Below are positions 2,861-33,509 of a DNA stretch of 64,000 bases, in pieces. The stretch comes from Escherichia phage vB_Ec-M-J: the sequence record OQ718158.1, one strand, 5' to 3'. The notes beneath the pieces are model-generated. The model was not told where the DNA came from. It ran no database searches and worked only from the letters and a program-made list of their open reading frames with translations. The translations under genes and the position numbers were made by a program. Position 1 is the first letter of the stretch; each line of letters opens with the position of its first letter.

Positions 2861-3127
2861 ATGAATATTAAGTATTTTGCGACGCGTGAACAAGCTCGGA
2901 TCGCCGCACGGCAGGACGGGGCAACGTTTAAAGATATGGGCGTACAATCGGAACGTGGTAAACGTTGGGCCATTGTAAAGCGTAGTACCGCCAGATCATT
3001 ACAGTACTGGTTAGCGGCCTTAAAAAGTCCCGATAGTGTATCGCGTCGAGTGGTAGAAATAAAGCTCGACCGAAAGGGCAACCGCGTGACTGTGTACCGT
3101 ACTAAAAAGATTGCAGTACTTGAATAA
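2861..3127 (+). CDS. hypothetical early protein; paralog of 15375..15770
   Basis: start moved to ATG after RBS AAGGG; shares KYFATREQARIAAR...RKGNRVTVY with 15375 gene. Confidence 0.6.
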   Translation: MNIKYFATREQARIAARQDGATFKDMGVQSERGKRWAIVKRSTARSLQYWLAALKSPDSVSRRVVEIKLDRKGNRVTVYRTKKIAVLE

Positions 3128-3134
3128 AAAGTAC

Positions 3135-3193
3135 TTGCAAACTATGTTTAATGGCGTATAATGTTTTACATCGAGAGCGGGAACACTTCCCGC
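3135..3193 (+). promoter_or_regulatory. early promoter + 5' stem-loop
   Basis: TTGCAA-16-TATAAT-GTTTTACATC; hairpin GCGGGAAcacTTCCCGC. Confidence 0.65.
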
Positions 3194-3214: not shown

Positions 3215-3445
3215 ATGACTAATATGTATATGACTGAAGTTAAAACCGTAAAAGATACTACCACGAATAAAACTACTTACTTACAGCGGATCTGCGGTGT
3301 ATGGCAACGTATCAGCAAATCAAAGTACTTTAAATTAACATCATATGCAAACCGTTCGGATTCATTCAGTACTGAAATAAAAGGTAATAAAGTACACCAA
3401 TACGGCACTTATTATTATTATAGCCTGGACGCGATTGCAGTCTAA
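3215..3445 (+). CDS. hypothetical early protein (76 aa)
   Basis: track ORF; promoter + RBS GGAG. Confidence 0.6.
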   Translation: MTNMYMTEVKTVKDTTTNKTTYLQRICGVWQRISKSKYFKLTSYANRSDSFSTEIKGNKVHQYGTYYYYSLDAIAV

Positions 3446-3475
3446 GCAGTTTACAAATCTTTACAATTGCCGGTA

Positions 3476-3504
3476 TTGACTTATTTTGTCAGTACTGGCA
3501 TAAT
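3476..3504 (+). promoter_or_regulatory. sigma70-like promoter upstream of conserved box
   Basis: TTGACT-17-CATAAT. Confidence 0.5.
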
Positions 3505-3536
3505 GTATTCATTGGCAGATAAGCCGTAGCCCATAG

Positions 3537-3565
3537 GGTGCGGGAGTGTATCTATAGAAAAATTA
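3537..3565 (+). promoter_or_regulatory. conserved ~29-bp box (TAGCCCAyAGGGTGC..GTGTATCTAT)
   Basis: one of about 10 copies in the window, always 25-50 bp downstream of a promoter. Confidence 0.5.
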
Positions 3566-3567
3566 GT

Positions 3568-3600
3568 TTAGTACAGTTACAATTGTGCACCCGGTGGGTT
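3568..3600 (-). promoter_or_regulatory. inverted copy of conserved box
   Basis: reverse complement of GTGCACCCGGTGGGTTAGC matches the box. Confidence 0.45.
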
Positions 3601-3619
3601 AGCTGTTGTCATGGGGTAT

Positions 3620-3648
3620 ATTATGCCAGTACTTGATAATGCTGTCAA
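3620..3648 (-). promoter_or_regulatory. leftward promoter convergent with 3476 promoter
   Basis: minus strand TTGACA-17-CATAAT. Confidence 0.45.
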
Positions 3649-3693
3649 TACTTTTTTAATATTCAGTACTGAAAACTATTTTTAAAAAGTACT

Positions 3694-3720
3694 TGCAAAC
3701 TATGTTTAAAGGCGTATAAT
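3694..3720 (+). promoter_or_regulatory. early promoter (no immediate hairpin; long leader)
   Basis: TTGCAA-15-TATAAT-GTTTTACATC. Confidence 0.6.
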
Positions 3721-3810
3721 GTTTTACATCAGGACGGGGAACGAAATAAGTAACTTCCCGTTAAGTAGCCCAGGAGTAAGGCACACGAAAAACTCCCCTG
3801 ATAAAATAGT
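3721..3810 (+). promoter_or_regulatory. structured ~90-nt leader, duplicated at 14175..14262
   Basis: CAGGACGGGGAACGAAA.AAGTAAC..CCCGTTAAGTAG.CCAGGAGTAAG...AAAAACTCCCCTGATAAAATAG nearly identical in both copies. Confidence 0.5.
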
Positions 3811-3838
3811 TTGACAATTGTTTTTAAAAGCGTATAAT
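3811..3838 (+). promoter_or_regulatory. second (tandem) promoter before 3871 gene
   Basis: TTGACA-16-TATAAT. Confidence 0.5.
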
Positions 3839-3870
3839 ACTTACATCAACTACTGAATGAGGGTTACAAA

Positions 3871-4545
3871 ATGAAAACTATCACTACTACTACTTTCGTT
3901 ATGGATTTTTCTGAATTGAATGAGGGTTGCAAAGCGAAAACTGTCACTAATACTACTTTCGTTATGGATTTTTCTGAATTGAACGCAGAACAAAAAACGT
4001 CAGCTATCGAACTGGTTCGGGAACGTGAAAAAAACTTAAACGATGATTATTTTTCTGAAAGTGAAATTGAATACTATAAAGAAACAGTACTACCGGAATA
4101 TGGCATTAATGACGCTGAAATACAATTCAGTGGTTTTTGGTCCCAGGGTGACGGTGCATCAATCAGTACTGACCACGTTGACGCAGTGAAGTTTTTACGC
4201 AAGGTAAGAGCATTAACTAAATATCGCTCAATCCGTCACTTGCTGAATGAAGATGATTTGGCGATGAGTGTAAAGCGTTCTCACTCCCACTACTCGCATG
4301 AGAATACTGTAAGCGGGTACATTGAATCGGCTTACACTGATTTAACCGCAAAACAAGAAACGTTAGTTAATGAGCTTGAGGAACTACTCACTGAAACTAT
4401 TCGTGAATTATCCCGCAAGTTGTACCGTGATTTAGAGAATGCATATGAGGATCAATTCACTACTGAAAACATTACGGCACTGATTGAGGGTAACGAATAT
4501 CAATTCAATGTTATTAATGGCGTAGTAGAATCAATCGAATATTAA
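3871..4545 (+). CDS. hypothetical protein (224 aa) with N-terminal tandem duplication
   Basis: track ORF; TTTFVMDFSELN(E/A) repeated twice near N-terminus. Confidence 0.7.
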   Translation: MKTITTTTFVMDFSELNEGCKAKTVTNTTFVMDFSELNAEQKTSAIELVREREKNLNDDYFSESEIEYYKETVLPEYGINDAEIQFSGFWSQGDGASISTDHVDAVKFLRKVRALTKYRSIRHLLNEDDLAMSVKRSHSHYSHENTVSGYIESAYTDLTAKQETLVNELEELLTETIRELSRKLYRDLENAYEDQFTTENITALIEGNEYQFNVINGVVESIEY

Positions 4546-21565: not shown

Positions 21566-21594
21566 TTGACTTTTTATATGAATTGTATATTATA
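21566..21594 (+). promoter_or_regulatory. promoter at head of F1 array
   Basis: TTGACT-17-ATTATA. Confidence 0.5.
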
Positions 21595-21623
21595 TGATTG
21601 ATATTATTTTTAATGGAGTCCCT

Positions 21624-21821
21624 ATGCGTATTTTAACTCAAGAAGAGCACAACGACACACTCATATCCAACATGGCATATATCCTACATATGTCACATAT
21701 CCGTGGTATTGCATATAAGCGTGAATTGGTTATGAAACTTTTCATAGGAACTAACTATCAAGAAAAGTATATCGAACTATACTTACAAGAATTACGAAGG
21801 GACATAAAAGGAAGACGATGA
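21624..21821 (+). CDS. F1 paralog (small GTNYQ-motif protein)
   Basis: start moved to ATG after RBS GGAG; C-terminal FIGTNYQEKYIELYL. Confidence 0.55.
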   Translation: MRILTQEEHNDTLISNMAYILHMSHIRGIAYKRELVMKLFIGTNYQEKYIELYLQELRRDIKGRR

Positions 21822-22018
21822 AAATGCGTATTTTAAATAAAGAAGATTATCAAGAACTGTTACGTAAAAACATGGTAAAGATTTATAACACAGACACAAA
21901 CTTAGAACGAATTGAGTTATACCTTTTGATTACATTGGGAACAAGCTATCAGGGAAGATGGGTGATTCAATATATTGATGCATTGAAAAATGAAATATTG
22001 TCCACGAGGAAACAATGA
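21818..22018 (+). CDS. F1 paralog
   Basis: ATGA overlap; LGTSYQGRWVIQYI. Confidence 0.55.
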   Translation: MKMRILNKEDYQELLRKNMVKIYNTDTNLERIELYLLITLGTSYQGRWVIQYIDALKNEILSTRKQ

Positions 22019-22224
22019 AAACTATAACACGAACCCAATCATTCGGTCTTATCTTGAAATACATGGACTTAATGTTTGATATCAGCAAAGACCTTTCTAA
22101 AACTGAAATCCAAGTTGCAAGAGCAGAGATCCGCATGTTGGCTGTACTGAACACAAACCATCAGGAAGAGTATGTTGACGATTGGATTCATTTTTTAATA
22201 GAAGATATTAAGAGTAAACTATGA
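22015..22224 (+). CDS. F1 paralog
   Basis: ATGA overlap; LNTNHQEEYVDDWI. Confidence 0.55.
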   Translation: MKTITRTQSFGLILKYMDLMFDISKDLSKTEIQVARAEIRMLAVLNTNHQEEYVDDWIHFLIEDIKSKL

Positions 22225-22436
22225 TTTTTTTAACACCAGAAGAATATAAGATACGTTTTGTTTCTGTCCAGAATAAAATCTTACTGATATATGCTTCTTT
22301 AAATGTAGACCTTAACTTATCAAGGGCAATGGAGAAGGATTTACTCATGGGTGCATTTTTGGATACAGACTTTCAGGAGTATTATGTAGGGGAATACTTA
22401 ATTGCACTCAAGAATTATATTAAGAGTAAACTATGA
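22221..22436 (+). CDS. F1 paralog
   Basis: ATGA overlap; FLDTDFQEYYVGEY. Confidence 0.55.
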   Translation: MIFLTPEEYKIRFVSVQNKILLIYASLNVDLNLSRAMEKDLLMGAFLDTDFQEYYVGEYLIALKNYIKSKL

Positions 22437-22648
22437 ATATCATTGCAAACTCAAATCAATATACCGAACGCGTCGCTGCCAGACAACTTGAAATTCTCAT
22501 AGTATATGAAGAGACTGATGATTTGAACTTAGCATTAGTATTGGAAAATGATATACTATTGGGTGCATTCCTCGGCACAGACTATCAGGAGCATTTCTTG
22601 AATGAGTATATAATTGCACTCCAGAAATACATTAAGAGCAAACTATGA
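22433..22648 (+). CDS. F1 paralog
   Basis: ATGA overlap; LGTDYQEHFLNEYI. Confidence 0.55.
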   Translation: MNIIANSNQYTERVAARQLEILIVYEETDDLNLALVLENDILLGAFLGTDYQEHFLNEYIIALQKYIKSKL

Positions 22649-22863
22649 AACATTTAAGTAATTCCGAGAAGAATAAAATTATCATTGCTGCAATAAACAA
22701 ATATTTTACACTTCCTCACACAGAAGGTTTATGTGTAAGAGAACACAGGATAAACACCACCGATATACGCATGATGGCTGTACTGGGGACTAACTTTCAG
22801 GAAGAGTATGTTGTTGCACACATAGTTGCCCTCACTGATCTAATAAGGGACAAATGTAAATGA
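22645..22863 (+). CDS. F1 paralog
   Basis: ATGA overlap; LGTNFQEEYVVAHI. Confidence 0.55.
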   Translation: MKHLSNSEKNKIIIAAINKYFTLPHTEGLCVREHRINTTDIRMMAVLGTNFQEEYVVAHIVALTDLIRDKCK

Positions 22864-23117
22864 AACACTTAACACTAGATGAATATGAAACTATAGTCCG
22901 TAAACTAACCCCTATAGCAAGGATAGTCTACGATGACCCCAGCCTTACATGGAACCAAATGCGAGCTAAAGTTAATGAGCTATGGTTGCTGTACTTTATG
23001 GGAACGCAATATCAAGATAAGTTTTGCACAGAATATGTCGAACAATTAATGAATGTTATACAGGATAAACTAGATGATTATTGGCTCACAAAACATGAAG
23101 ACTTTATCAGGAGTTGA
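22860..23117 (+). CDS. F1 paralog
   Basis: ATGA overlap; MGTQYQDKFCTEYV. Confidence 0.55.
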   Translation: MKHLTLDEYETIVRKLTPIARIVYDDPSLTWNQMRAKVNELWLLYFMGTQYQDKFCTEYVEQLMNVIQDKLDDYWLTKHEDFIRS

Positions 23118-23346
23118 GTATCAAACTGCCCTATTCTCTTTAATCCATACCCTTAGAAAAAACAATGCCTTACATGGTGCACCTGAAGTGGATGTTATCA
23201 ACGGTGAACTTTATCTTATGAAATTCATTGGAACAAACTATCAAGATCTGTTCATTCAACGATACCTATCAGCATTAAGAAACCAAATCCAATATAAAAC
23301 CATCAAGGCCAAAAAAGAATGGAATAAACAATGCGACACAGACTAA
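23095..23346 (+). CDS. F1 paralog
   Basis: in-frame ATG chosen (track 23074); FIGTNYQDLFIQRYL. Confidence 0.5.
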   Translation: MKTLSGVEYQTALFSLIHTLRKNNALHGAPEVDVINGELYLMKFIGTNYQDLFIQRYLSALRNQIQYKTIKAKKEWNKQCDTD

Positions 23347-23582
23347 ATCACAAAATGTATTGTAAACTATTACAGACACTGGCACAGAAACACTATGACA
23401 CGGTATCTGAAATATTACCCTATGATATCATGCGTTTACTTCACTGTGAGGCCGAGATGCTTGTACTGATGACAGGCACTGATAAAAAAGCAATTGCCAA
23501 ATCAATAGATATGTTCATCGAAGCACAATGTCAACACATTAGAACCGAGATATGGAGACGAGAGAATGATAACACTAAATGA
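23331..23582 (+). CDS. F1 paralog (divergent, MTGTD)
   Basis: track ORF; LMTGTDKKAIAKSI. Confidence 0.45.
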   Translation: MRHRLNHKMYCKLLQTLAQKHYDTVSEILPYDIMRLLHCEAEMLVLMTGTDKKAIAKSIDMFIEAQCQHIRTEIWRRENDNTK

Positions 23583-23781
23583 GTTTCAGTATCATTGGAG
23601 GTTACAAGCTATAAGAAGGAAAGTTGTTAGTATTTCTTTAGACAAGTCTATTGCACAAGAGGACAAATGTGTTATAATAGCTGAAATGAAGTTGGGTGTA
23701 TTCGTAGGAACAAACTATCAAAACATCTACACTGACGTATTGTTAAGTGCCTTACGTAACAAGGTGATATCAAAAGAATGA
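23566..23781 (+). CDS. F1 paralog
   Basis: track ORF; FVGTNYQNIYTDVLL. Confidence 0.55.
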   Translation: MITLNEFQYHWRLQAIRRKVVSISLDKSIAQEDKCVIIAEMKLGVFVGTNYQNIYTDVLLSALRNKVISKE

Positions 23782-23996
23782 GAAAATTAATAGGTTACGA
23801 ATATGTTAAGCTTCTGAAAACATGTGCCAACAGAAGAGTAAAGATTCAATCTGATAAGAGCATCCCTGCCAACCTAAAACATGCAATGGTAGCTGAACTC
23901 TATGCAGGGGCACTCATAGGGACAAACTATCAACAAATGTATATAGACATGTGGGTTGATGCATTAGTCAAGGAGATCCAAAGTAAATGCAAATGA
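23778..23996 (+). CDS. F1 paralog
   Basis: ATGA overlap; LIGTNYQQMYIDMWV. Confidence 0.55.
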   Translation: MRKLIGYEYVKLLKTCANRRVKIQSDKSIPANLKHAMVAELYAGALIGTNYQQMYIDMWVDALVKEIQSKCK

Positions 23997-24205
23997 TTAA
24001 TTTAAGTAAAGATGAATATTATGTTCGTCTTGCAAAAACTTATCCAGCACGTAACGCCGTTTATAATAGTAACATTATTGAACGCTCAAAGAAGTTGATT
24101 GTAGTAAATGAGATTAAGATGCTTTCAGTCTTAGGAACAAACTATCAAGAGAATGCTGTACTGTTGTTAATTGATGCCCTCAAGAGAGAGATACAAAGTA
24201 AATGA
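23987..24205 (+). CDS. F1 paralog
   Basis: track ORF; LGTNYQENAVLLLI. Confidence 0.55.
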   Translation: MQMINLSKDEYYVRLAKTYPARNAVYNSNIIERSKKLIVVNEIKMLSVLGTNYQENAVLLLIDALKREIQSK

Positions 24206-24441
24206 TTAATTTATCTTTCCATGAATATCAAAAACGTTTAAATGCATCAAGGGATATAAGGATTCAAATCTTCAATAACAAAAAATTGAAACCTGACACC
24301 AGAAGAATCAAAATAATAGAAGCAGAGTTATGCAACTTCCTGGGGACGAACCATCAGGAAGGTAAGATAAAAAACTATCTTAGAGAACTAATGATTTGTA
24401 TCGAAAATAAATGTGATGCTTTGGAGAATAAAAATGATTAA
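24202..24441 (+). CDS. F1 paralog
   Basis: ATGA overlap; LGTNHQEGKIKNYL. Confidence 0.55.
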   Translation: MINLSFHEYQKRLNASRDIRIQIFNNKKLKPDTRRIKIIEAELCNFLGTNHQEGKIKNYLRELMICIENKCDALENKND

Positions 24442-24691
24442 TTTAAGTAAAGATGAATATACCGAGCGTATGACAAAAATTACGCACAAACGTAATACAA
24501 TCTATCACAACCCAGAAATTCAACACAGTAAGAAAATGATTATGATGCGTGAGTTAAAGATGGGTGTATTCTTGGGAACAAACTATCAAGAGCCAGAAGT
24601 AAATCGATTAATTGATGAGTTACTATTGGAAATCAAAGGTAAGCTGTACTTTCATCAAATGACCCAACCACTGAGGTGTACTGATCGATGA
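24434..24691 (+). CDS. F1 paralog
   Basis: start moved to ATG after RBS GGAG (track 24413); LGTNYQEPEVNRLI. Confidence 0.55.
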   Translation: MINLSKDEYTERMTKITHKRNTIYHNPEIQHSKKMIMMRELKMGVFLGTNYQEPEVNRLIDELLLEIKGKLYFHQMTQPLRCTDR

Positions 24692-24939
24692 ATGCGATGA
24701 ATATTGTGAATAACATCAGATTAGCAGAAAGATTTGATAGAATTGGGGAAGCACTGAGAAGATACGATAAAGAATATGGTCATTTGAGCTTTTCTATAGA
24801 AAAGAGATATGAACTTGAAGCAGAGTTTAAAATGCAGAGTCTCTTAGGCACACAGTATCAAAACCAATATATTCAAACTTGGATTGATTGTTTAATCCAG
24901 ACAATTTACGTAAGAAACATTAAATGCAAAATGAAATGA
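24688..24939 (+). CDS. F1 paralog
   Basis: ATGA overlap; LGTQYQNQYIQTWI. Confidence 0.55.
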   Translation: MNAMNIVNNIRLAERFDRIGEALRRYDKEYGHLSFSIEKRYELEAEFKMQSLLGTQYQNQYIQTWIDCLIQTIYVRNIKCKMK

Positions 24940-25184
24940 TATACTTAACCTATAATGAATACGTCGAGAGATTAGTTCGTGCCAAGAGATATACCAATAA
25001 ACGTCCAATTGACCTAAACCAAACCCCAGCAGAAAGGAGTGCAGAAGTATTATTCCAATCACTACCATATCTTCTGGGAACTGATAGACAAGAGGAATAT
25101 GTTGCACGTATGATTAGATATCTTAAAATCACTATTAAGGAAAAAGTAAATGCAAATGCAAATGAAATACTTAACAGACGATGA
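24924..25184 (+). CDS. F1 paralog
   Basis: track ORF; LGTDRQEEYVARMI. Confidence 0.5.
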   Translation: MQNEMIYLTYNEYVERLVRAKRYTNKRPIDLNQTPAERSAEVLFQSLPYLLGTDRQEEYVARMIRYLKITIKEKVNANANEILNRR

Positions 25185-25407
25185 GTTAAAAGAACGATTA
25201 ATTAAATCCAGAAAACTTACAAATCAACTTCCAAACGACACAAACAAGTCACATGCCGAAAGGAGTGCAGAAGTTTTATACATTCAACTCCTGTACTTTC
25301 TTGGAACTGACAGACAAGAGTATTACATTGAAAGTATGCTTCGATATCTTAAATTCTCTATAAAGGAAAAGGTACATGCTCAAGAATTTAAAAATCCTAA
25401 CAGTTAA
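25150..25407 (+). CDS. F1 paralog
   Basis: track ORF; LGTDRQEYYIESML; close paralog of 24924 gene. Confidence 0.5.
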   Translation: MQMQMKYLTDDELKERLIKSRKLTNQLPNDTNKSHAERSAEVLYIQLLYFLGTDRQEYYIESMLRYLKFSIKEKVHAQEFKNPNS

Positions 25408-25618
25408 TGAATATCATAAGATTGTAATGAAAACTAATAGTGCAATTTCTAAAAAATCAAACCCAAAGTACATACTGGAACACACATTTGAAGAACGTCA
25501 ATTAGCTTTAGTTGAAGCAAAACTTCTTGCACTATTAGGAACAAACTATCAGGAAGAATACATCAGAAAACTAATATACCTTTTAACTAAACACATCAGG
25601 AAAAGAAAAAAAGCATGA
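25376..25618 (+). CDS. F1 paralog
   Basis: track ORF; LGTNYQEEYIRKLI. Confidence 0.5.
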   Translation: MLKNLKILTVNEYHKIVMKTNSAISKKSNPKYILEHTFEERQLALVEAKLLALLGTNYQEEYIRKLIYLLTKHIRKRKKA

Positions 25619-25845
25619 AGCACTTGACAGATGATGAACATGGGCTTATAGTAATGGATGTAATCAACATCGAATACAAAAAGTTGATACGCTACCGTTG
25701 TTATGAAGATAAGCAACTCGTTCTAGCAGAACAGAAGTTGTTTCGACTCTTAAACACAAACTTCCAAGCACAATACGAAGAATCGTATATGTACCTTTTG
25801 GCGAGGAAAGCAAAAAGAGATTATGAAAATTTTAAGCCACAGTGA
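25615..25845 (+). CDS. F1 paralog
   Basis: ATGA overlap; LNTNFQAQYEESYM. Confidence 0.5.
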   Translation: MKHLTDDEHGLIVMDVINIEYKKLIRYRCYEDKQLVLAEQKLFRLLNTNFQAQYEESYMYLLARKAKRDYENFKPQ

Positions 25846-26038
25846 ACAAACAGAATTGTTAATCTTTAATACAAGTAAATTCTTAAACATAACATTGTCT
25901 GATATAGATGATGATGAAAAAGAGTTACTTAGAGCAGATTTAAGAGTTCTTTTATATATTGGAACTAACTTCCAAGAGCAATTCGTTGAGGACTACATCG
26001 ATGAACTTAAAGAATCTGTACTGAGAACATGCAAATGA
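25823..26038 (+). CDS. F1 paralog
   Basis: track ORF; IGTNFQEQFVEDYI. Confidence 0.5.
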   Translation: MKILSHSEQTELLIFNTSKFLNITLSDIDDDEKELLRADLRVLLYIGTNFQEQFVEDYIDELKESVLRTCK

Positions 26039-26262
26039 AAATCCTTTCACCAAGTGAATACCACGAACTATTAAGTAGTTTAATTCTAAAATTGTATATA
26101 GCAAAGACCACAGATTTACCTGATGAAGAAAAAAATATTCTAATGAGTGAAATCTATGTTAATTCTACCCTAGGGACTAACTATCAAGAATGCAATATTA
26201 ATGATTACATCAATGAACTAAAAAGGTTTATCCAATGCAAATGCGAATCATTACCGAAGTAG
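26029..26262 (+). CDS. F1 paralog
   Basis: track ORF; LGTNYQECNINDYI. Confidence 0.5.
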   Translation: MQMKILSPSEYHELLSSLILKLYIAKTTDLPDEEKNILMSEIYVNSTLGTNYQECNINDYINELKRFIQCKCESLPK

Positions 26263-26477
26263 AATACCTAACAATCATAAATGGACTGTTTTCGAAGTTA
26301 TTTGCCATTAACACATCAAAACTTCCAGATACTGATAAAATTATTAAGTTAAATGAAATCTACGTTCAAGCTACTCTAGGAACAAACTATCAAGAAGCCA
26401 ATGTGTATAATTACATTAATACACTCAAAAGGGTAATACAATTAAAATGCACAGACAGCACACACACAAACCCCTAG
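26235..26477 (+). CDS. F1 paralog
   Basis: track ORF; LGTNYQEANVYNYI; close paralog of 26029 gene. Confidence 0.5.
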   Translation: MQMRIITEVEYLTIINGLFSKLFAINTSKLPDTDKIIKLNEIYVQATLGTNYQEANVYNYINTLKRVIQLKCTDSTHTNP

Positions 26478-26677
26478 GAACAGCAGAATACATTGAACTA
26501 ATGGCTGCAAACTTCTCATCCTTTAAGAAACTGATGCAAGAATCAAATAATGATTTAGAATATCATATCAAAAGTTCAGATTTAAGATTGCTACTCACTC
26601 TAGGAACAGACAGTCAGTACAAATTCGTACAGGAGCATATTAGAGCACTTTTAAATGGCATCAGGGATAAACTATGA
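26447..26677 (+). CDS. F1 paralog
   Basis: track ORF; LGTDSQYKFVQEHI. Confidence 0.5.
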   Translation: MHRQHTHKPLGTAEYIELMAANFSSFKKLMQESNNDLEYHIKSSDLRLLLTLGTDSQYKFVQEHIRALLNGIRDKL

Positions 26678-26889
26678 AGGAAATATCAAATCAAGAGTAC
26701 TTGGCACTGTTCAGAAAAAATAGTCAAGAATTTCTGAATATTGATACAAGGACTGATATAAGTGAACTTCAGAAAAATCTTTTGCGTTCAGAGATGATAG
26801 TACTGACACTCTTAGGAACACAGCATCAAGAGAGAACTGTTAATTCACACATAGGTATTCTTATACAGATAGTACAGGAAAAGATATGA
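26674..26889 (+). CDS. F1 paralog
   Basis: ATGA overlap; LGTQHQERTVNSHI. Confidence 0.5.
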   Translation: MKEISNQEYLALFRKNSQEFLNIDTRTDISELQKNLLRSEMIVLTLLGTQHQERTVNSHIGILIQIVQEKI

Positions 26890-27107
26890 GAATCATAACA
26901 CAAAAAGATATTTTTAAGTACGCAAGGGTTCATGCATCTGAAATGAATGCTATATTATCAAAAAGTTACAATGACCCTTATACACAAGATGTACTGTATC
27001 AGGAATTATGGTTGAATATACTTATAGGTACTAACTACCAAGATGAGTGCGTTCAGAGGTATTTGACAGCTTTACGTGATGCTACAGCTAATGGAGTACG
27101 TGTTTAA
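26886..27107 (+). CDS. F1 paralog
   Basis: ATGA overlap; IGTNYQDECVQRYL. Confidence 0.5.
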   Translation: MRIITQKDIFKYARVHASEMNAILSKSYNDPYTQDVLYQELWLNILIGTNYQDECVQRYLTALRDATANGVRV

Positions 27108-29657: not shown

Positions 29658-30033
29658 AAAAGTAATATTTCTTTTGAATACAAGAAGTTCTTTATATAAG
29701 GAGTTCAAGGATATTAAAACATCGTGTAATATAGATTTTTTTGAAACCATACATGCGGAGTTTCGTGATTTAATTATAGATGTATTGTTTGAATTTTCCG
29801 AGAAATATCAAGGTACAGTCTTCGGTGTTAAGAATGTTCTTCGTCCAAGTACAGGTACAAGGAAGATTGAGTTATCACATTTTACAATTGGTAACAACGA
29901 TTTATTCAGTTATAACCCCAGTACATCTTTATATTTTATTCCTAAAGGAGAAAAGAATAGTCCTATTCATTACGGATGGATTATATCTTATACAATAAAT
30001 GGAACGGAGTATCCTATCAAATGGCACGATTAG
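29623..30033 (+). CDS. hypothetical protein (136 aa)
   Basis: track ORF; no family motif. Confidence 0.5.
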   Translation: MNMNPEIVQDLKKVIFLLNTRSSLYKEFKDIKTSCNIDFFETIHAEFRDLIIDVLFEFSEKYQGTVFGVKNVLRPSTGTRKIELSHFTIGNNDLFSYNPSTSLYFIPKGEKNSPIHYGWIISYTINGTEYPIKWHD

Positions 30034-30173
30034 GGTGTGAAGATTATAATATGAATATATTATTAAGAAATATTAATGCAGATTATTGTGTATGGGTTAA
30101 GAATAGAGATATGATGTATTATGATTTTTATTTAGATTGTGCCATTAAGCGTTTTTTAAGAGAAGAACATTAA
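29976..30173 (+). CDS. hypothetical small protein (start uncertain)
   Basis: track ORF overlapping upstream gene end. Confidence 0.3.
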   Translation: MDYILYNKWNGVSYQMARLGCEDYNMNILLRNINADYCVWVKNRDMMYYDFYLDCAIKRFLREEH

Positions 30174-30355
30174 TGAAAACCGTTAATACAAAAGCAATAA
30201 ATGATTTAAATGATTCTTTATTAGTAAGTATCAAGATGTATTACAATATACATTTAAAGGGTGGTATAGATAATTACAATTATTATCTTTCATTAGTTAC
30301 AATAGAACATTTAAATTATATAGATCAGTTATTACATCCAAATCCACCAAATTAA
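30173..30355 (+). CDS. hypothetical small protein (60 aa)
   Basis: track ORF; start overlaps upstream stop. Confidence 0.35.
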   Translation: MKTVNTKAINDLNDSLLVSIKMYYNIHLKGGIDNYNYYLSLVTIEHLNYIDQLLHPNPPN

Positions 30356-30366
30356 GGAATACCAAT

Positions 30367-30927
30367 ATGAATGATATTGAGTTATTGGTACATAAGATTT
30401 GCACAATATCGTTAGTGCTGAACAATGCGAATACAGTACAGAGTTCCCTTTTAAGAATTAATAAAGTTGGGAGTAGTTTATATTTGGAAGTAAAAGCTGG
30501 TTTTGCAGGACAGTACAATGATAAAATCAAAGAAGAAGTTAAGGGAAATGAAGATGCTTTCATTGAGGTTTGTGCAACAGTTGGTTCAAATCCAATTTCA
30601 GTATCACCTTTAATGCGAAATGAAAATTCAGAATTTGATTCCAGTTTTGAAGGTTATTTGTGGTACAATGCTGGTGATGATTATTTTATATATCAGAATT
30701 CCAAAACGGATTATAGTGAAGAAGGTATAAAATTCATTGATCCTTACAATGAAGCAGAAGTATTTCAGACATCCCTAATATACAATGCAAATCAAATGAA
30801 GTATCTTATGTTGTTTAGTACAATGCATTTGAATCCATTGAAAGATAATTTAAAATTTTTCATTCGTTTAGAATTAGTTGATATTGCTTATGATCTTTTA
30901 ATGCAAGGATACAGTTATGAAGTATAA
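30367..30927 (+). CDS. F2 paralog (LLMQGYSYEV C-terminus)
   Basis: track ORF; EAEVFQTSL; C-terminal 60 aa near-identical to 31004 gene. Confidence 0.6.
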   Translation: MNDIELLVHKICTISLVLNNANTVQSSLLRINKVGSSLYLEVKAGFAGQYNDKIKEEVKGNEDAFIEVCATVGSNPISVSPLMRNENSEFDSSFEGYLWYNAGDDYFIYQNSKTDYSEEGIKFIDPYNEAEVFQTSLIYNANQMKYLMLFSTMHLNPLKDNLKFFIRLELVDIAYDLLMQGYSYEV

Positions 30928-30928
30928 A

Positions 30929-30997
30929 ATGCTGTATACAAAAGATATGATTTATGTTGAATTAGAAGTCAATGACGATGTATCCATCAATAGGTAA
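30929..30997 (+). pseudogene. 22-codon remnant of an MLYT-type F2 gene
   Basis: MLYTKDMIYVELEVNDD matches N-termini of 31512 and 31844 genes, then stops. Confidence 0.5.
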
Positions 30998-31003
30998 TAA
31001 TAT

Positions 31004-31510
31004 ATGAATGAGATAGAATTATTAGCACACAAGATTAGTACAGTAATGCTTATGCTCAAGAATAATCATTCTATGCATAAGTACATTTTTATAGGTGATT
31101 TACGCATAGAAGATAGATATGATAAATTATCGTTTATGTTTAAAGATGAAAGTAATGCAAAAGTTTGTTTTGCAGCATTTGCCCAAGGCAATCCAGAACA
31201 AGCATCTCCTGTTATATACGAAAATAGTGAAGGGTATTTGTGGGTCAACACAAACGATTATTTCTTTTATGTTTTGAAACAAGATGATGAAGTAGAAGCA
31301 CGAATTGATTTAATTGATATTAGTTCAGATTGTAGTGCTGAATTATTTCAGAAATCGTTATTATACAGTCCTCGTCAAATACATTATCTAAAGTTATTCA
31401 GTTCATTGTACGCGAATCCTTTAATTAAGGGTTTTAAATTTTATATCAAAATTCCGCACCTTTCAAACGTTTATGATTTATTAATGCAAGGATATAGTTA
31501 TGAAGTATAA
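31004..31510 (+). CDS. F2 paralog (LLMQGYSYEV C-terminus)
   Basis: track ORF; SAELFQKSL. Confidence 0.6.
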   Translation: MNEIELLAHKISTVMLMLKNNHSMHKYIFIGDLRIEDRYDKLSFMFKDESNAKVCFAAFAQGNPEQASPVIYENSEGYLWVNTNDYFFYVLKQDDEVEARIDLIDISSDCSAELFQKSLLYSPRQIHYLKLFSSLYANPLIKGFKFYIKIPHLSNVYDLLMQGYSYEV

Positions 31511-31511
31511 A

Positions 31512-31811
31512 ATGCTGTATACATTAACATTAATATATGTAGAATTAGAATCCGATTCAGATGCATGGAATTTGGTTAAAGAGGTCGATACCAATCAATG
31601 GTACATGGCAAATTTAGACGCACAGGTTGTTACGGATTATTTTATAGATTTTAATACATTATCTGAAGAAGAATTTTTCCAAATGCAATTGGTGGTTGAC
31701 ATGTACGGACATGACATGGTAACATTAAGAAATATACAGAAAGCCGTTAATGAATTCCAAAGCAAGAAAGATTATGAGGTAGGAGCGTATTATGACATCG
31801 ACGTACAGTGA
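31512..31811 (+). CDS. F2 paralog (MLYT type)
   Basis: ATG 1 nt after upstream stop (track 31500 in frame); SEEEFFQMQL. Confidence 0.55.
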   Translation: MLYTLTLIYVELESDSDAWNLVKEVDTNQWYMANLDAQVVTDYFIDFNTLSEEEFFQMQLVVDMYGHDMVTLRNIQKAVNEFQSKKDYEVGAYYDIDVQ

Positions 31812-31843
31812 AAGCAATGAGTACAATAGTTATGAAGTATAAA

Positions 31844-32149
31844 ATGCTTTATACATTATCAGGGATATATGTAGAATTAGAACCCGATTATCCAGATGGA
31901 TGGAATTTTATCAAACGCTCCGAAAGAAATACATGGTACATGGCACATTTGGATAATGACGTAATATTAGACAATTTTGTGGATTTTAATACATTATCAG
32001 AAGAAGAATTCTTCCAAATGCAATGTGTGCTTGACACAAAAGGATTTGATGTGCTATTATTAAAGAATATACAGAAAGCTGTTAACGAATTAATATCCAA
32101 TGACGAGTTAGGCAAAGTGAGGCTGTTCCATGATCTCGAAGTACAATGA
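31844..32149 (+). CDS. F2 paralog (MLYT type)
   Basis: start at MLYT ATG (track 31808 is GTG); preceded by fossil ...agttatgaagtataaa; SEEEFFQMQC. Confidence 0.5.
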   Translation: MLYTLSGIYVELEPDYPDGWNFIKRSERNTWYMAHLDNDVILDNFVDFNTLSEEEFFQMQCVLDTKGFDVLLLKNIQKAVNELISNDELGKVRLFHDLEVQ

Positions 32150-32705
32150 AAGCAATGAGTACAATGAAATTCAGTACACCTACGCTAATGCAATCCTTAT
32201 GGGACAAAAGTTAGCTTGTATTGTTGCAGCCTTATATAATGCACAGAAAGATTACAAGCGTCACATCCACAAATGTATTGGTATTATTCCATCGAAGTAC
32301 AATACATATATTGCGTGCACGAGACATTTTGATAAACGATTCAATACACCTGATACCCCAAATGCCCATAGTGTTATTGGTCTTTTGGATTTTGCCCCTG
32401 GTGCTGTTATTGGAAAGAATGATTTAGAGTACGCATGGTATAATAAAAATGCCCCGTTAGTAATGGTAAAATATGATACAGAAACGAACAAAGCAATAGA
32501 GTACAATACATATAAATCAGAGGAAGAATTTTTCCAAGGTTCATTGCTTGTGCCAGTGCGTTTGTTATTTTATAATGTCATAATGAGTACAGTACACGAT
32601 AGTCCATTACACAAGAATCACAAAATTAATTTCAATTTTTGTGCTTATGCGATTGATGGTGTTTATGAGTGCTTAATGGAGGTATTGAGTTATGAAGCTG
32701 AATAA
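32130..32705 (+). CDS. F2 paralog
   Basis: track ORF (start uncertain); SEEEFFQGSL. Confidence 0.5.
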   Translation: MISKYNESNEYNEIQYTYANAILMGQKLACIVAALYNAQKDYKRHIHKCIGIIPSKYNTYIACTRHFDKRFNTPDTPNAHSVIGLLDFAPGAVIGKNDLEYAWYNKNAPLVMVKYDTETNKAIEYNTYKSEEEFFQGSLLVPVRLLFYNVIMSTVHDSPLHKNHKINFNFCAYAIDGVYECLMEVLSYEAE

Positions 32706-33033
32706 TACATTTGATATTAAGAAGTTAAGAGAATGGTTTAATAGTATTGAAATTGACGCCATTCCTTATCATACATATGAACAAAGTGATTTACAAAGTA
32801 TTGATATCAGTGAGTTGTACAAATATTATCAGAGTGCATTAGAGATGCATAAGTTATTTTTGAGTACAAATTTCATTCTAAATTACAATTTTGAGGAATT
32901 TAATAATTATAATTTAGTACAGAAATATGTAGTAGCAAAGTACATGTACAATCAAGGAATTAAAGATTGCCTCGAATTCAATACCGTTCTTATTTTAGTT
33001 GAGGTAATTTTATGCACCGCATGTCTGATTTAG
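32692..33033 (+). CDS. hypothetical protein (113 aa)
   Basis: track ORF; no clear family motif. Confidence 0.4.
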   Translation: MKLNNTFDIKKLREWFNSIEIDAIPYHTYEQSDLQSIDISELYKYYQSALEMHKLFLSTNFILNYNFEEFNNYNLVQKYVVAKYMYNQGIKDCLEFNTVLILVEVILCTACLI

Positions 33034-33509
33034 AGTTCAGTTTAGATGCAGCCTTTAAATTTGTTCACAAAATAGAAACAATATATCGTACATTATGTGC
33101 AATAACATCAGTATCAAAAGAGTTTGATGTTGGTGAAAGGTATCAGGTGTGGAATAATTCATTTTATAATAAAGAACATTCTGCGACGGCATTTTATATT
33201 TTAGCATTTAATCCCAGCAATTGTTACCCAGAGAAGCATGAACGTTATCCAAATGACGACATGTGGTTTGAGTACAAAGAAGATGCTGATATGTCGTCAA
33301 TTGTAGTTCCTGATGATTTTAATGCACAAGATTTAACAGAAGAGTGGTGGTTCCAGCAGAATTTAGTACATGATGATATTGATTTATTTTTCTATATTGC
33401 ATTTAAAATGCTTTATCACAACAATATAGTTAAAGAAAGTTTATCGTTTTCATGTCTATATATTGATGATTTGTACAATGAAATTCAAATAAACATGCCT
33501 GTATCGTAA
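33012..33509 (+). CDS. F2 paralog
   Basis: track ORF; TEEWWFQQNL. Confidence 0.55.
   Translation: MHRMSDLEFSLDAAFKFVHKIETIYRTLCAITSVSKEFDVGERYQVWNNSFYNKEHSATAFYILAFNPSNCYPEKHERYPNDDMWFEYKEDADMSSIVVPDDFNAQDLTEEWWFQQNLVHDDIDLFFYIAFKMLYHNNIVKESLSFSCLYIDDLYNEIQINMPVS

Follow-up and report, generated by a model that had tools for sequence, protein, structure and literature searches.

The novel joints that arise by tandem duplication are classically known from the rII region of T4 and from lambda, and both the birth-and-death evolution of multigene families and the mosaicism of phages, produced by homologous exchange at conserved gene boundaries, are well established. In the hyperplastic regions of T4-type phages, intergenic cassettes consisting of a promoter and a stem-loop terminator, the PeSLs, have been described (Arbiol et al. 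2010, PMC2839356; PMC4122927), and from poxviruses gene-array homogenisation is known as well as genomic accordions, which are recent arrays of near-identical genes, whose copy number is driven by recombination under strong selection (Sasani et al. 2018, PMC6115191). Here we describe an array of small overlapping genes in Escherichia phage vB_Ec-M-J (sequence record OQ718158.1), located within an analysed stretch of 64,000 nucleotides (nt), which is referred to below as the window. The array contains genes of a LONG type (LONG-A, LONG-B and LONG-C) and of a SHORT type (SHORT-1 and SHORT-2), interrupted by two stubs.

The anatomy of the two stubs and the comparison with related genomes make it probable that they are the novel joints of two tandem duplications, and that the block composed of the first stub and LONG-B was later lost or swapped by recombination in related phages. 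The locus is a new instance of a well-known evolutionary process and not of a new mechanism.

As in the T4 rII and lambda duplications, a segment is repeated head to tail, the only new sequence is the joint of a right end with a left end, and this joint lies at little or no homology, after which the structure is unstable owing to homologous exchange between the copies. The locus differs from them in that the copies are old or come from different alleles (synonymous divergence, dS, of 0.6-1.1) and are fixed in natural lineages instead of being selected in the laboratory, and in that each unit took up one small overlapping gene and no more, complete with its translation signals. With the shuffling of PeSLs it shares the outcome: close relatives differ by insertions, deletions or replacements of small non-essential genes, exchanged via short conserved boundary sequences. 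However, the boundaries are here coding overlaps (LONG stop with SHORT start, and SHORT stop with LONG start) that carry no promoter or terminator signal, and the array therefore falls outside the PeSL class. The likeness to poxvirus accordions lies in the changing copy number of a small gene in a large double-stranded DNA virus, in breakpoints that define the unit and in later contraction; the accordion-like variation among isolates (class I versus class II, and class III versus class IV, see below) is found at a flank divergence of 0-0.8%. In contrast to the accordions, there are two copies per unit, and these are deeply diverged, over the dS range given above. Nothing fundamental separates the locus from birth-and-death families or from phage mosaicism, of which it is a finely resolved example.

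Results

Anatomy of the first stub

The window originates from a jumbo coliphage of the Asteriusvirus type (121Q/PBECO4 group). Its best match is WPEC3 (97.2%), and CMSTMSU, fEgEco12, Turkey3, 121Q and PBECO4 are further relatives. The orthologous region was taken from 20 GenBank relatives, and the segments of the window were mapped onto each of them. Across positions 30367-33033 the order is LONG-A, stub, LONG-B, SHORT-1, stub, SHORT-2, LONG-C and a gene designated N. The array genes around the joints are all on the + strand, each overlapping its neighbours, in DNA of ~30% G+C (Table 1).

The left half of the first stub (30917-30980) corresponds to codons 1-21 of a SHORT gene (its initial 63-64 nt), namely of the allele found in phages A4 and PBECO4, which we call S3. 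It matches the PBECO4 S3 at 56/63 positions. The intact SHORT of A4, with a protein that starts MKYKMLYTKDMIYVELEGDEDGWNL, is 93.5% identical to it across 62 nt; to judge from these alignments, the segment is a pseudogene fragment. A preliminary description of the array had reported here an open reading frame (ORF) of 22 codons (30929..30997) that reproduces the beginning of the SHORT genes. This ORF exists, with the peptide MLYTKDMIYVELEVNDDVSINR and not one ending in NDD, and its similarity to the SHORT 5' ends is real (48/63 to SHORT-1 and 45/63 to SHORT-2; 78% and 91% to the reference over 64 nt in family D1 of the repeat finder). The copies read from 31512 and 31844, to which it had been related, are nevertheless not its source: the parent is a different SHORT allele, which is intact in A4, PBECO4 and UE-S1. 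The more natural start of the ORF is the ATG at 30917 (MKYKMLYT..., 26 amino acids, aa), which overlaps the end of LONG-A.

The right half of the stub (30981-31003) is not SHORT sequence. Its homologue is the 3' end of the gene that stands before the LONG slot in the native order, and its ~23-24 nt include the ribosome-binding site of LONG (AGGT) with the spacer. The string at 30978-30997 (ATGTATCCATCAATAGGTAA) is identical at 20/20 positions to the native junction of UE-S1 and at 16/17 to that of PBECO4, in both of which its position relative to the LONG ATG is unchanged. As ATGTATCCATCAATAGGTAA occurs only once in the window, it appears to be the fossil of an allele which is no longer present at its native place in the genome. 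Such an order, in which part of the right-hand gene comes first, the end of the left-hand gene next and a complete second copy last, is what a head-to-tail duplication leaves behind, and since the duplicated tail carries AGGT, LONG-B would have retained its translation signals. Among the gaps between 21 and 56 kb, only 30928-31003 resembles the 5' end of a gene.

Anatomy of the second stub

The segment 31792-31827 and the opening 36 nt of LONG-C (32130-32165; repeat family D10) are 89% identical, and the segment is followed by AGTT and then by the start of SHORT-2. Because SHORT-1 stops within this segment and the ATG of SHORT-2 is at 31832, just 20 nt are non-genic; they are composed of 16 nt from codons 7-12 of LONG-C (in the allele type of the window) and AGTT from the 3' end of a LONG gene.

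In the relatives that lack the joints (classes IV, V and VI, see below) homology breaks exactly at them. The BLAST alignment starts at 30980 in every genome without joint 1, and in 121Q it begins at 31826, which is the native junction between a LONG end and a SHORT start. Parental arrangements without joints do exist, i.e. A'-S3-C, A'-S2'-C (121Q) and B-S (A4). The order within each joint is head to tail: SHORT nt 1-63/64 precede the ~24 nt that stand before a LONG ATG, and LONG-C nt 1-36 precede the AGTT that stands before a SHORT ATG. Homologous copies in direct orientation flank each of them (LONG-A/LONG-B and SHORT-1/SHORT-2, respectively).

The two joints also hold the real fossils of the locus, which are 30981-31003 and 31812-31827. 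The latter lies in a copy of an allele-specific insertion of 18 nt in the N-terminus of LONG-C (32148-32165, KYNESNEYNEIQ), whose equivalent reads KYRTSN(D/E)IQ in PBECO4-type phages and KYNEIQ in 121Q. This insertion is what the preliminary description had listed as a recurring junction string, GAAAGCAATGAGTACAAT, and exact matches to it were indeed recovered twice, at 31810 and at 32148, for an expectation of 0.01. In Ecwhy_1, fEgEco12 and Turkey3 the 18-nt string is kept in the stub and is absent from the present LONG-C allele, and the stub thus preserves an older allele. A different string, agttatgaagtataaa, had been regarded as the remaining end of a LONG gene that has lost its body. This interpretation must be abandoned: 12 of its 16 bases are codons 1-4 of SHORT (ATG AAG TAT AAA), only AGTT falls outside SHORT, and the ATG is the SHORT start in the annotations of related genomes.

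The same architecture might be explained by gene death, if a complete SHORT gene had once stood at 30917-31003 and a complete LONG gene at 31792-31842, and their bodies had later been deleted. The second stub can be read in this way, as an "empty" LONG gene whose start module is in frame with the stop module, and the fusion observed in the class VI genomes (LONG-C start to codon 5 of N, see below) shows that gene bodies are indeed lost or gained between the junction modules of this locus. In the first stub, however, what follows the SHORT fragment is not a SHORT tail but the end of LONG's upstream neighbour, for which a deletion needs an extra coincidence. An intact gene was found at neither stub position in ~35 GenBank records and 16 contigs, and the deletion model invokes two events where one is enough. 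We therefore consider gene death unlikely as a general explanation. From the composition of the joints it appears disfavoured for joint 1, and possible but less parsimonious for joint 2.

The mini-ORF of the second stub

The 16-codon mini-ORF consists of a LONG-C-type start (the SHORT-stop junction module J_S plus codons 7-12) fused in frame to the LONG-stop junction module J_L. An SD-like (Shine-Dalgarno) GGAG lies upstream of its ATG (31792), and the mini-ORF may be translated. This raises the question of whether the stubs are functional small ORFs, encoding micropeptides or acting as translational "bridges" which pass ribosomes to LONG-B or SHORT-2. The mini-ORF starts inside the end of SHORT-1, its TAA stop overlaps the start of SHORT-2, SHORT-2 has lost the AAGGA found ahead of the other SHORT copies, and the frame is open in 7/7 genomes carrying it; to judge from this arrangement, it might hand ribosomes on to SHORT-2. 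These seven genomes are nearly identical here, though, so that conservation says little, and an in-frame fusion would arise by chance in one case out of three. The ORF of the first stub has 26 codons in the window, 14 in class III (owing to a +1 frameshift) and 18 in BF17 (owing to a 12-nt duplication), which means that no stub ORF is conserved at this position. Scans of the scars for RNA structure, Rfam families, promoters and terminators gave nothing above shuffled controls. A function of the stubs as genes or bridges is, in our opinion, highly improbable, and the duplication joints remain the preferred explanation for both.

Table 1. Coordinates of the genes, joints and repeated modules of the array in the window
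Feature	Position	Strand	Remarks
LONG-A	30367..30927	+	186 aa, ends ...LLMQGYSYEV-stop; 'A' allele of the first LONG slot; phrog_19795
J_L copy 1, AGTTATGAAGTATAAA	30913..30928	+	LONG stop overlapping the SHORT-type start ATGAAGTATAAA
First stub (joint 1)	30917..31003	+	left half 30917-30980, right half 30981-31003
LONG-B	31004..31510	+	168 aa; C-terminus as in LONG-A; 'B' allele of the LONG slot, second tandem copy
J_L copy 2	31496..31511	+	pairs with copy 1 in the 583-nt direct repeat
Tandem-duplication unit 2, two copies	31496-31827 (332 nt), 31828-32165 (338 nt)	+	each AGTT + SHORT + first 36 nt of LONG-C
SHORT-1	31500..31811	+	103 aa, phrog_33987, starts MKYKMLYT; stop TGA 31809-31811 within junction module J_S
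Second stub (16-codon mini-ORF)	31792..31842	+	peptide MTSTYSESNEYN continued by SYEV-stop
Joint 2	31812..31831	+	20 nt, the sole truly non-genic DNA between SHORT-1 and SHORT-2
SHORT-2	31832..32149	+	105 aa, phrog_33987, starts MKYKMLYT
LONG-C	32130..32705	+	191 aa, phrog_19795, ends ...CLMEVLSYEAE-stop
J_L copy 4, AGTTATGAAG	from 32688	+	followed by gene N
Gene N	32692..33033	+	113 aa, phrog_36216

Repeats of the array and their significance

All the repeated strings of the preliminary description were located at, or a few bases from, the positions it had given, and all are above chance. The module AGTTATGAAGTATAAA is present in three exact copies (30913, 31496 and 31828), whereas 0.26 are expected even if up to two mismatches are allowed, and 0/100 shuffles reached three. 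Repeated junction segments, which a self-comparison of the array had been predicted to reveal, were recovered by the repeat finder in direct orientation, spaced by 583 nt or by 332, 335 or 338 nt.

Chance similarity, or an artefact of assembly in an AT-rich and repetitive region, might be invoked, given the low G+C content and the fact that some of the related records are flagged UNVERIFIED. Exact repeats of 16 and 18 nt nevertheless lie far above the shuffled expectation, and among the ~33 GenBank records of the group joint 1 recurs in 13 independent genomes and joint 2 in 7. The exact LONG-B protein was found in 16 further contigs, including those from gut metagenomes, which also carry the joints; ten of these contigs are listed as loci, all with the class I layout, the rest being collapsed as similar places. 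The architecture, shared by six GenBank genomes and the 16 contigs, is not an assembly artefact, and the probability of this explanation can be regarded as negligible.

Architectures among the relatives

The claims that the array of paralogs bears scars of recombination, and that copy number should differ among related genomes, were both borne out. The genomes fall into six classes. Class I (A, stub, B, S1, stub, S2, C, N) comprises the window, WPEC3, CMSTMSU, fEgEco12 and Turkey3, to which searches with the joints added WPEC5 and EC.P1. Class II is represented by Ecwhy_1 (A, S1, stub, S2, C', N). JP4, slurp01, ECO103, TH47, BF17 and ELP-22 form class III (A', stub, B, S3, C, N), beside which EC22.5-2 is listed, since joint 1 was detected there by the joint search. 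PBECO4, CRJP21, SP27, SD-6_S16 and G17 form class IV (A', S3, C, N), and 121Q forms class V (A', S2', C, N). Class VI, without LONG-C, consists of UE-S1 (A', S3 and fused N), A4 (B, S and fused N) and ph0011 (A, S and fused N).

Scans of IMG/VR with LONG-B and LONG-C matched only 121Q, and the look-ups of contigs with the exact protein revealed no architecture other than that of the window itself. A survey of the literature on paralogs and duplications in Asteriusvirus turned up no account of the array.

Loss and gain of the first stub and LONG-B

The comparison of copy number, recommended in the preliminary description, showed that the block of first stub and LONG-B is present in some genomes and absent from others. 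Genomes with and without it are interleaved on the trees of both the left and the right flank. Pairs that differ in the block can be very close: JP4 and PBECO4 (class III with it, class IV without it) show a flank divergence of 0.7% on the left and 0.6% on the right, slurp01 and SD-6_S16 (also III versus IV) of 0.0% on the left, and Ecwhy_1 and fEgEco12 (II versus I) of 0.0% on the left and 0.8% on the right. These splits are too recent for LONG-B to have arisen from LONG-A', which argues that the block was lost or re-acquired several times by homologous exchange.

The loss or gain of the block is bounded by the J_L repeat. The junction repeat comprises 34 identical nt in class I and ~85 near-identical nt in class III (PBECO4-like), with a spacing of 578-583 nt. 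In Ecwhy_1 exactly one 583-nt period is missing, the crossover lying within the identical stretch of the junction.

Alleles, divergence and selection

The LONG-A of class I/II relatives shows 99% identity to that of the window, and that of ph0011, which has no other LONG gene, shows 94%. LONG-B varies little between genomes of classes I and III (98-100% identity; dS between the window and JP4 is just 0.016) and is 89% identical over its full length to the sole LONG gene of A4. As the single LONG gene is of type B in A4, A' in UE-S1 and A in ph0011, these are alternative alleles of one slot, and the genomes of classes I and III carry two alleles of this slot in tandem. The two copies of each kind are distant: LONG-A and LONG-B share 44% aa identity (dS 1.1, dN/dS, the ratio of nonsynonymous to synonymous divergence, 0.47), and SHORT-1 and SHORT-2 share 60% (dS 0.60, dN/dS 0.48). 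SHORT-2 is 80% identical at the aa level to the single SHORT of 121Q. The intact genes show dN/dS values of 0.26-0.5; the intact copies are under purifying selection and deeply diverged.

Allele exchange is plainly frequent in this locus. The LONG-C of the window is 96-98% identical to that of PBECO4/121Q and only 76% identical to the allele of its nearest relatives (Ecwhy_1, fEgEco12 and Turkey3), and the LONG-C of WPEC3 (3331-3924) is a chimera that switches between two allele types within the gene. LONG-C is absent from UE-S1 (~3354), A4 (~3309) and ph0011 (3347), in which the body of N directly follows SHORT. N begins there with MTSKY(N/C), i.e. the start of LONG-C is fused in frame to codon 5 of N at an AAT microhomology. 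This state is either a deletion of LONG-C or the state before its insertion; it is the third instance in which a gene body was gained or lost between these modules.

Two further differences between the genomes were observed at the locus. In Turkey3 (1173-1502) and A4 (2158-2508), and only in these two, an extra gene of ~110-116 aa lies between the upstream gene of 60 aa and the first LONG; the N-terminus of its A4 product (MFNKIMFILTFVFLSFINTAHTAQA...) resembles a signal peptide. It is another insertion/deletion polymorphism. In CMSTMSU, whose record is flagged UNVERIFIED_ORG, SHORT-2 (3030-3161) and LONG-C (3327-3755) are frameshifted, and these frameshifts are more likely to be sequencing errors than to reflect real pseudogenes.

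Gene families and regulatory signals

The LONG genes match the phrog_19795 profile (E 2.7e-33 to 1.8e-84) and the SHORT genes the phrog_33987 profile (E 7.7e-42 and 3.5e-53), in all cases over the full length; both families are annotated as "unknown function". A Pfam scan of ten array proteins returned nothing above threshold. At least 30 small genes of the + strand, spread over ~27350-54543 (also at 24924, 26886 and 58567), share the motif EE-x-[FY]-[FY]-Q-x-S-[LT]-[IV], whose F and Q do not vary in either of the paralog alignments of this LONG/SHORT superfamily. The motif core, EExFFQ, was likened by eye to a protease site of the tobacco etch virus (TEV) type, for which no support was obtained. 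A homolog search with LONG-C in 5.8 billion proteins yielded 7 clusters, all from the same phage group, and a profile search of 1.84 billion representatives yielded 107 small proteins, none of them named. As far as these databases reach, the LONG/SHORT family appears restricted to Asteriusvirus-type jumbo phages. The AlphaFold2 model of SHORT-2 has a mean confidence (pLDDT) of 81, and that of LONG-C is weak (pLDDT 64). From the position of the genes in an array of early type, a role in host takeover or anti-defence can be guessed.

Promoter-like sites number 29, against 23.2 +/- 5.0 in shuffled sequences, and none is prominent at the joints; terminator-like sites are absent from 30000-33100. 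The RNA folds of the two scars are no better than those of shuffled sequences (z-scores of -0.24 and -0.01), and the Rfam scan of the scars identified no family. A 7-bp inverted repeat (GTATAAA-ATGC-TTTATAC, 31837-31854) brackets the second in-frame ATG of SHORT-2, with imperfect versions at 30922-30939 and 31505-31522; the regional fold energy is no better than in shuffles.

Other features of the window

Upstream of the array, the region ~21594-27107 contains ~25 consecutive genes of 66-91 aa, mostly with 4-nt overlaps of the ATGA type, and looks like a second, separate paralog array. The region 397-20648 holds, on the + strand, 26 copies of an intergenic cassette (0.15 expected), for instance at 1698, 7558, 10503, 13622, 18788 and 20633. 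Each runs from a -35-like AAAAAGTACTTGCA through 17 nt, GTATAAT and GTTTTACATCGAGAG to a hairpin rich in GC (about -13 to -16 kcal/mol, z about -2), which is followed by AAGGA and a start codon, and resembles the PeSL-type promoter/stem-loop cassettes of T4-type phages. No copy was found beyond 20.65 kb, where the genes overlap instead.

Discussion

The anatomy of the joints and the comparison of genomes suggest a history in three steps. In the first, an illegitimate exchange at an ATG microhomology would have joined nt 63-64 of a SHORT gene to a point ~23 nt upstream of the ATG of the preceding LONG. This could have happened within one genome, or between two co-infecting genomes with different LONG alleles. 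The product would be a SHORT stub, followed by the tail of the upstream gene with the ribosome-binding site, and then by a second complete LONG gene (LONG-B). In the second step, a duplication at an AT microhomology would have copied AGTT, a whole SHORT gene and 36 nt of LONG-C, giving rise to SHORT-1 and SHORT-2 with 20 non-genic bases between them. As both duplications would have captured a whole ORF with its translation signals, the intact copies have been kept under purifying selection, while the stubs drift. In the third step, for which the compared genomes provide the evidence, the direct repeats of LONG end and SHORT start served as the substrate for homologous unequal exchange, by which the block of first stub and LONG-B was repeatedly removed or re-introduced. 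Homologous exchange between co-infecting relatives, moreover, swaps alleles (LONG-A/A'/B, SHORT S1/S2/S3 and LONG-C/C') and creates intragenic chimeras. Such swapping accounts for the fact that the joints hold fossils of alleles which the genome no longer carries.

The preliminary description had attributed the scars to unequal crossing-over and to gene birth and death. Unequal crossing-over holds only for the later losses and gains between repeats; the formation of the joints is better described as illegitimate, with 2-3 nt of microhomology. Likewise, the stubs are best read as novel joints from duplication, i.e. as marks of gene birth, and not as dead genes.

It should be borne in mind that several observations weigh against this history, or at least against its simplest form. 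The first stub is ~90-100% like its parent, while LONG-A' and LONG-B are separated by a dS of ~1.07, which does not fit a simple in situ duplication followed by divergence. The founding exchange may therefore have taken place between diverged genomes, or copy 1 may have been replaced later. For joint 2, a one-step duplication and a duplication followed by deletion of a LONG gene predict an identical sequence; only parsimony and the lack of an intact intermediate in ~50 genomes and contigs favour the single step. The direction of each difference in presence or absence of the block (loss or re-acquisition) is inferred, and some of the records on which the comparison draws, including Ecwhy_1, CMSTMSU and some others, are flagged UNVERIFIED.

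A more far-reaching, and rather doubtful, idea is that J_L and the overlap at the SHORT stop (ATGAyCTCGAAGTAC) could be built-in cassette boundaries for the in-frame insertion, deletion or swapping of genes between co-infecting jumbo phages. They would then be the coding counterpart of PeSL shuffling, and might be kept because they diversify a host-takeover or anti-defence repertoire across the early superfamily of at least 30 genes.

For the annotation of these genomes, the analysis carries a warning: the ORFs of 22-26 and of 16 codons are seams and not genes, and agttatgaagtataaa is the start of a gene and not a fossil. Alleles that were later replaced survive in the joints, which may be considered their "time capsules". 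More generally, the locus offers an account, at the level of single base pairs, of the ways in which the early-gene arrays of jumbo phages give birth to small genes, lose them and exchange them: a tandem duplication could capture, in one step, a whole overlapping ORF with its ribosome-binding site, and the repeats that result from it may later serve for homologous loss and gain.

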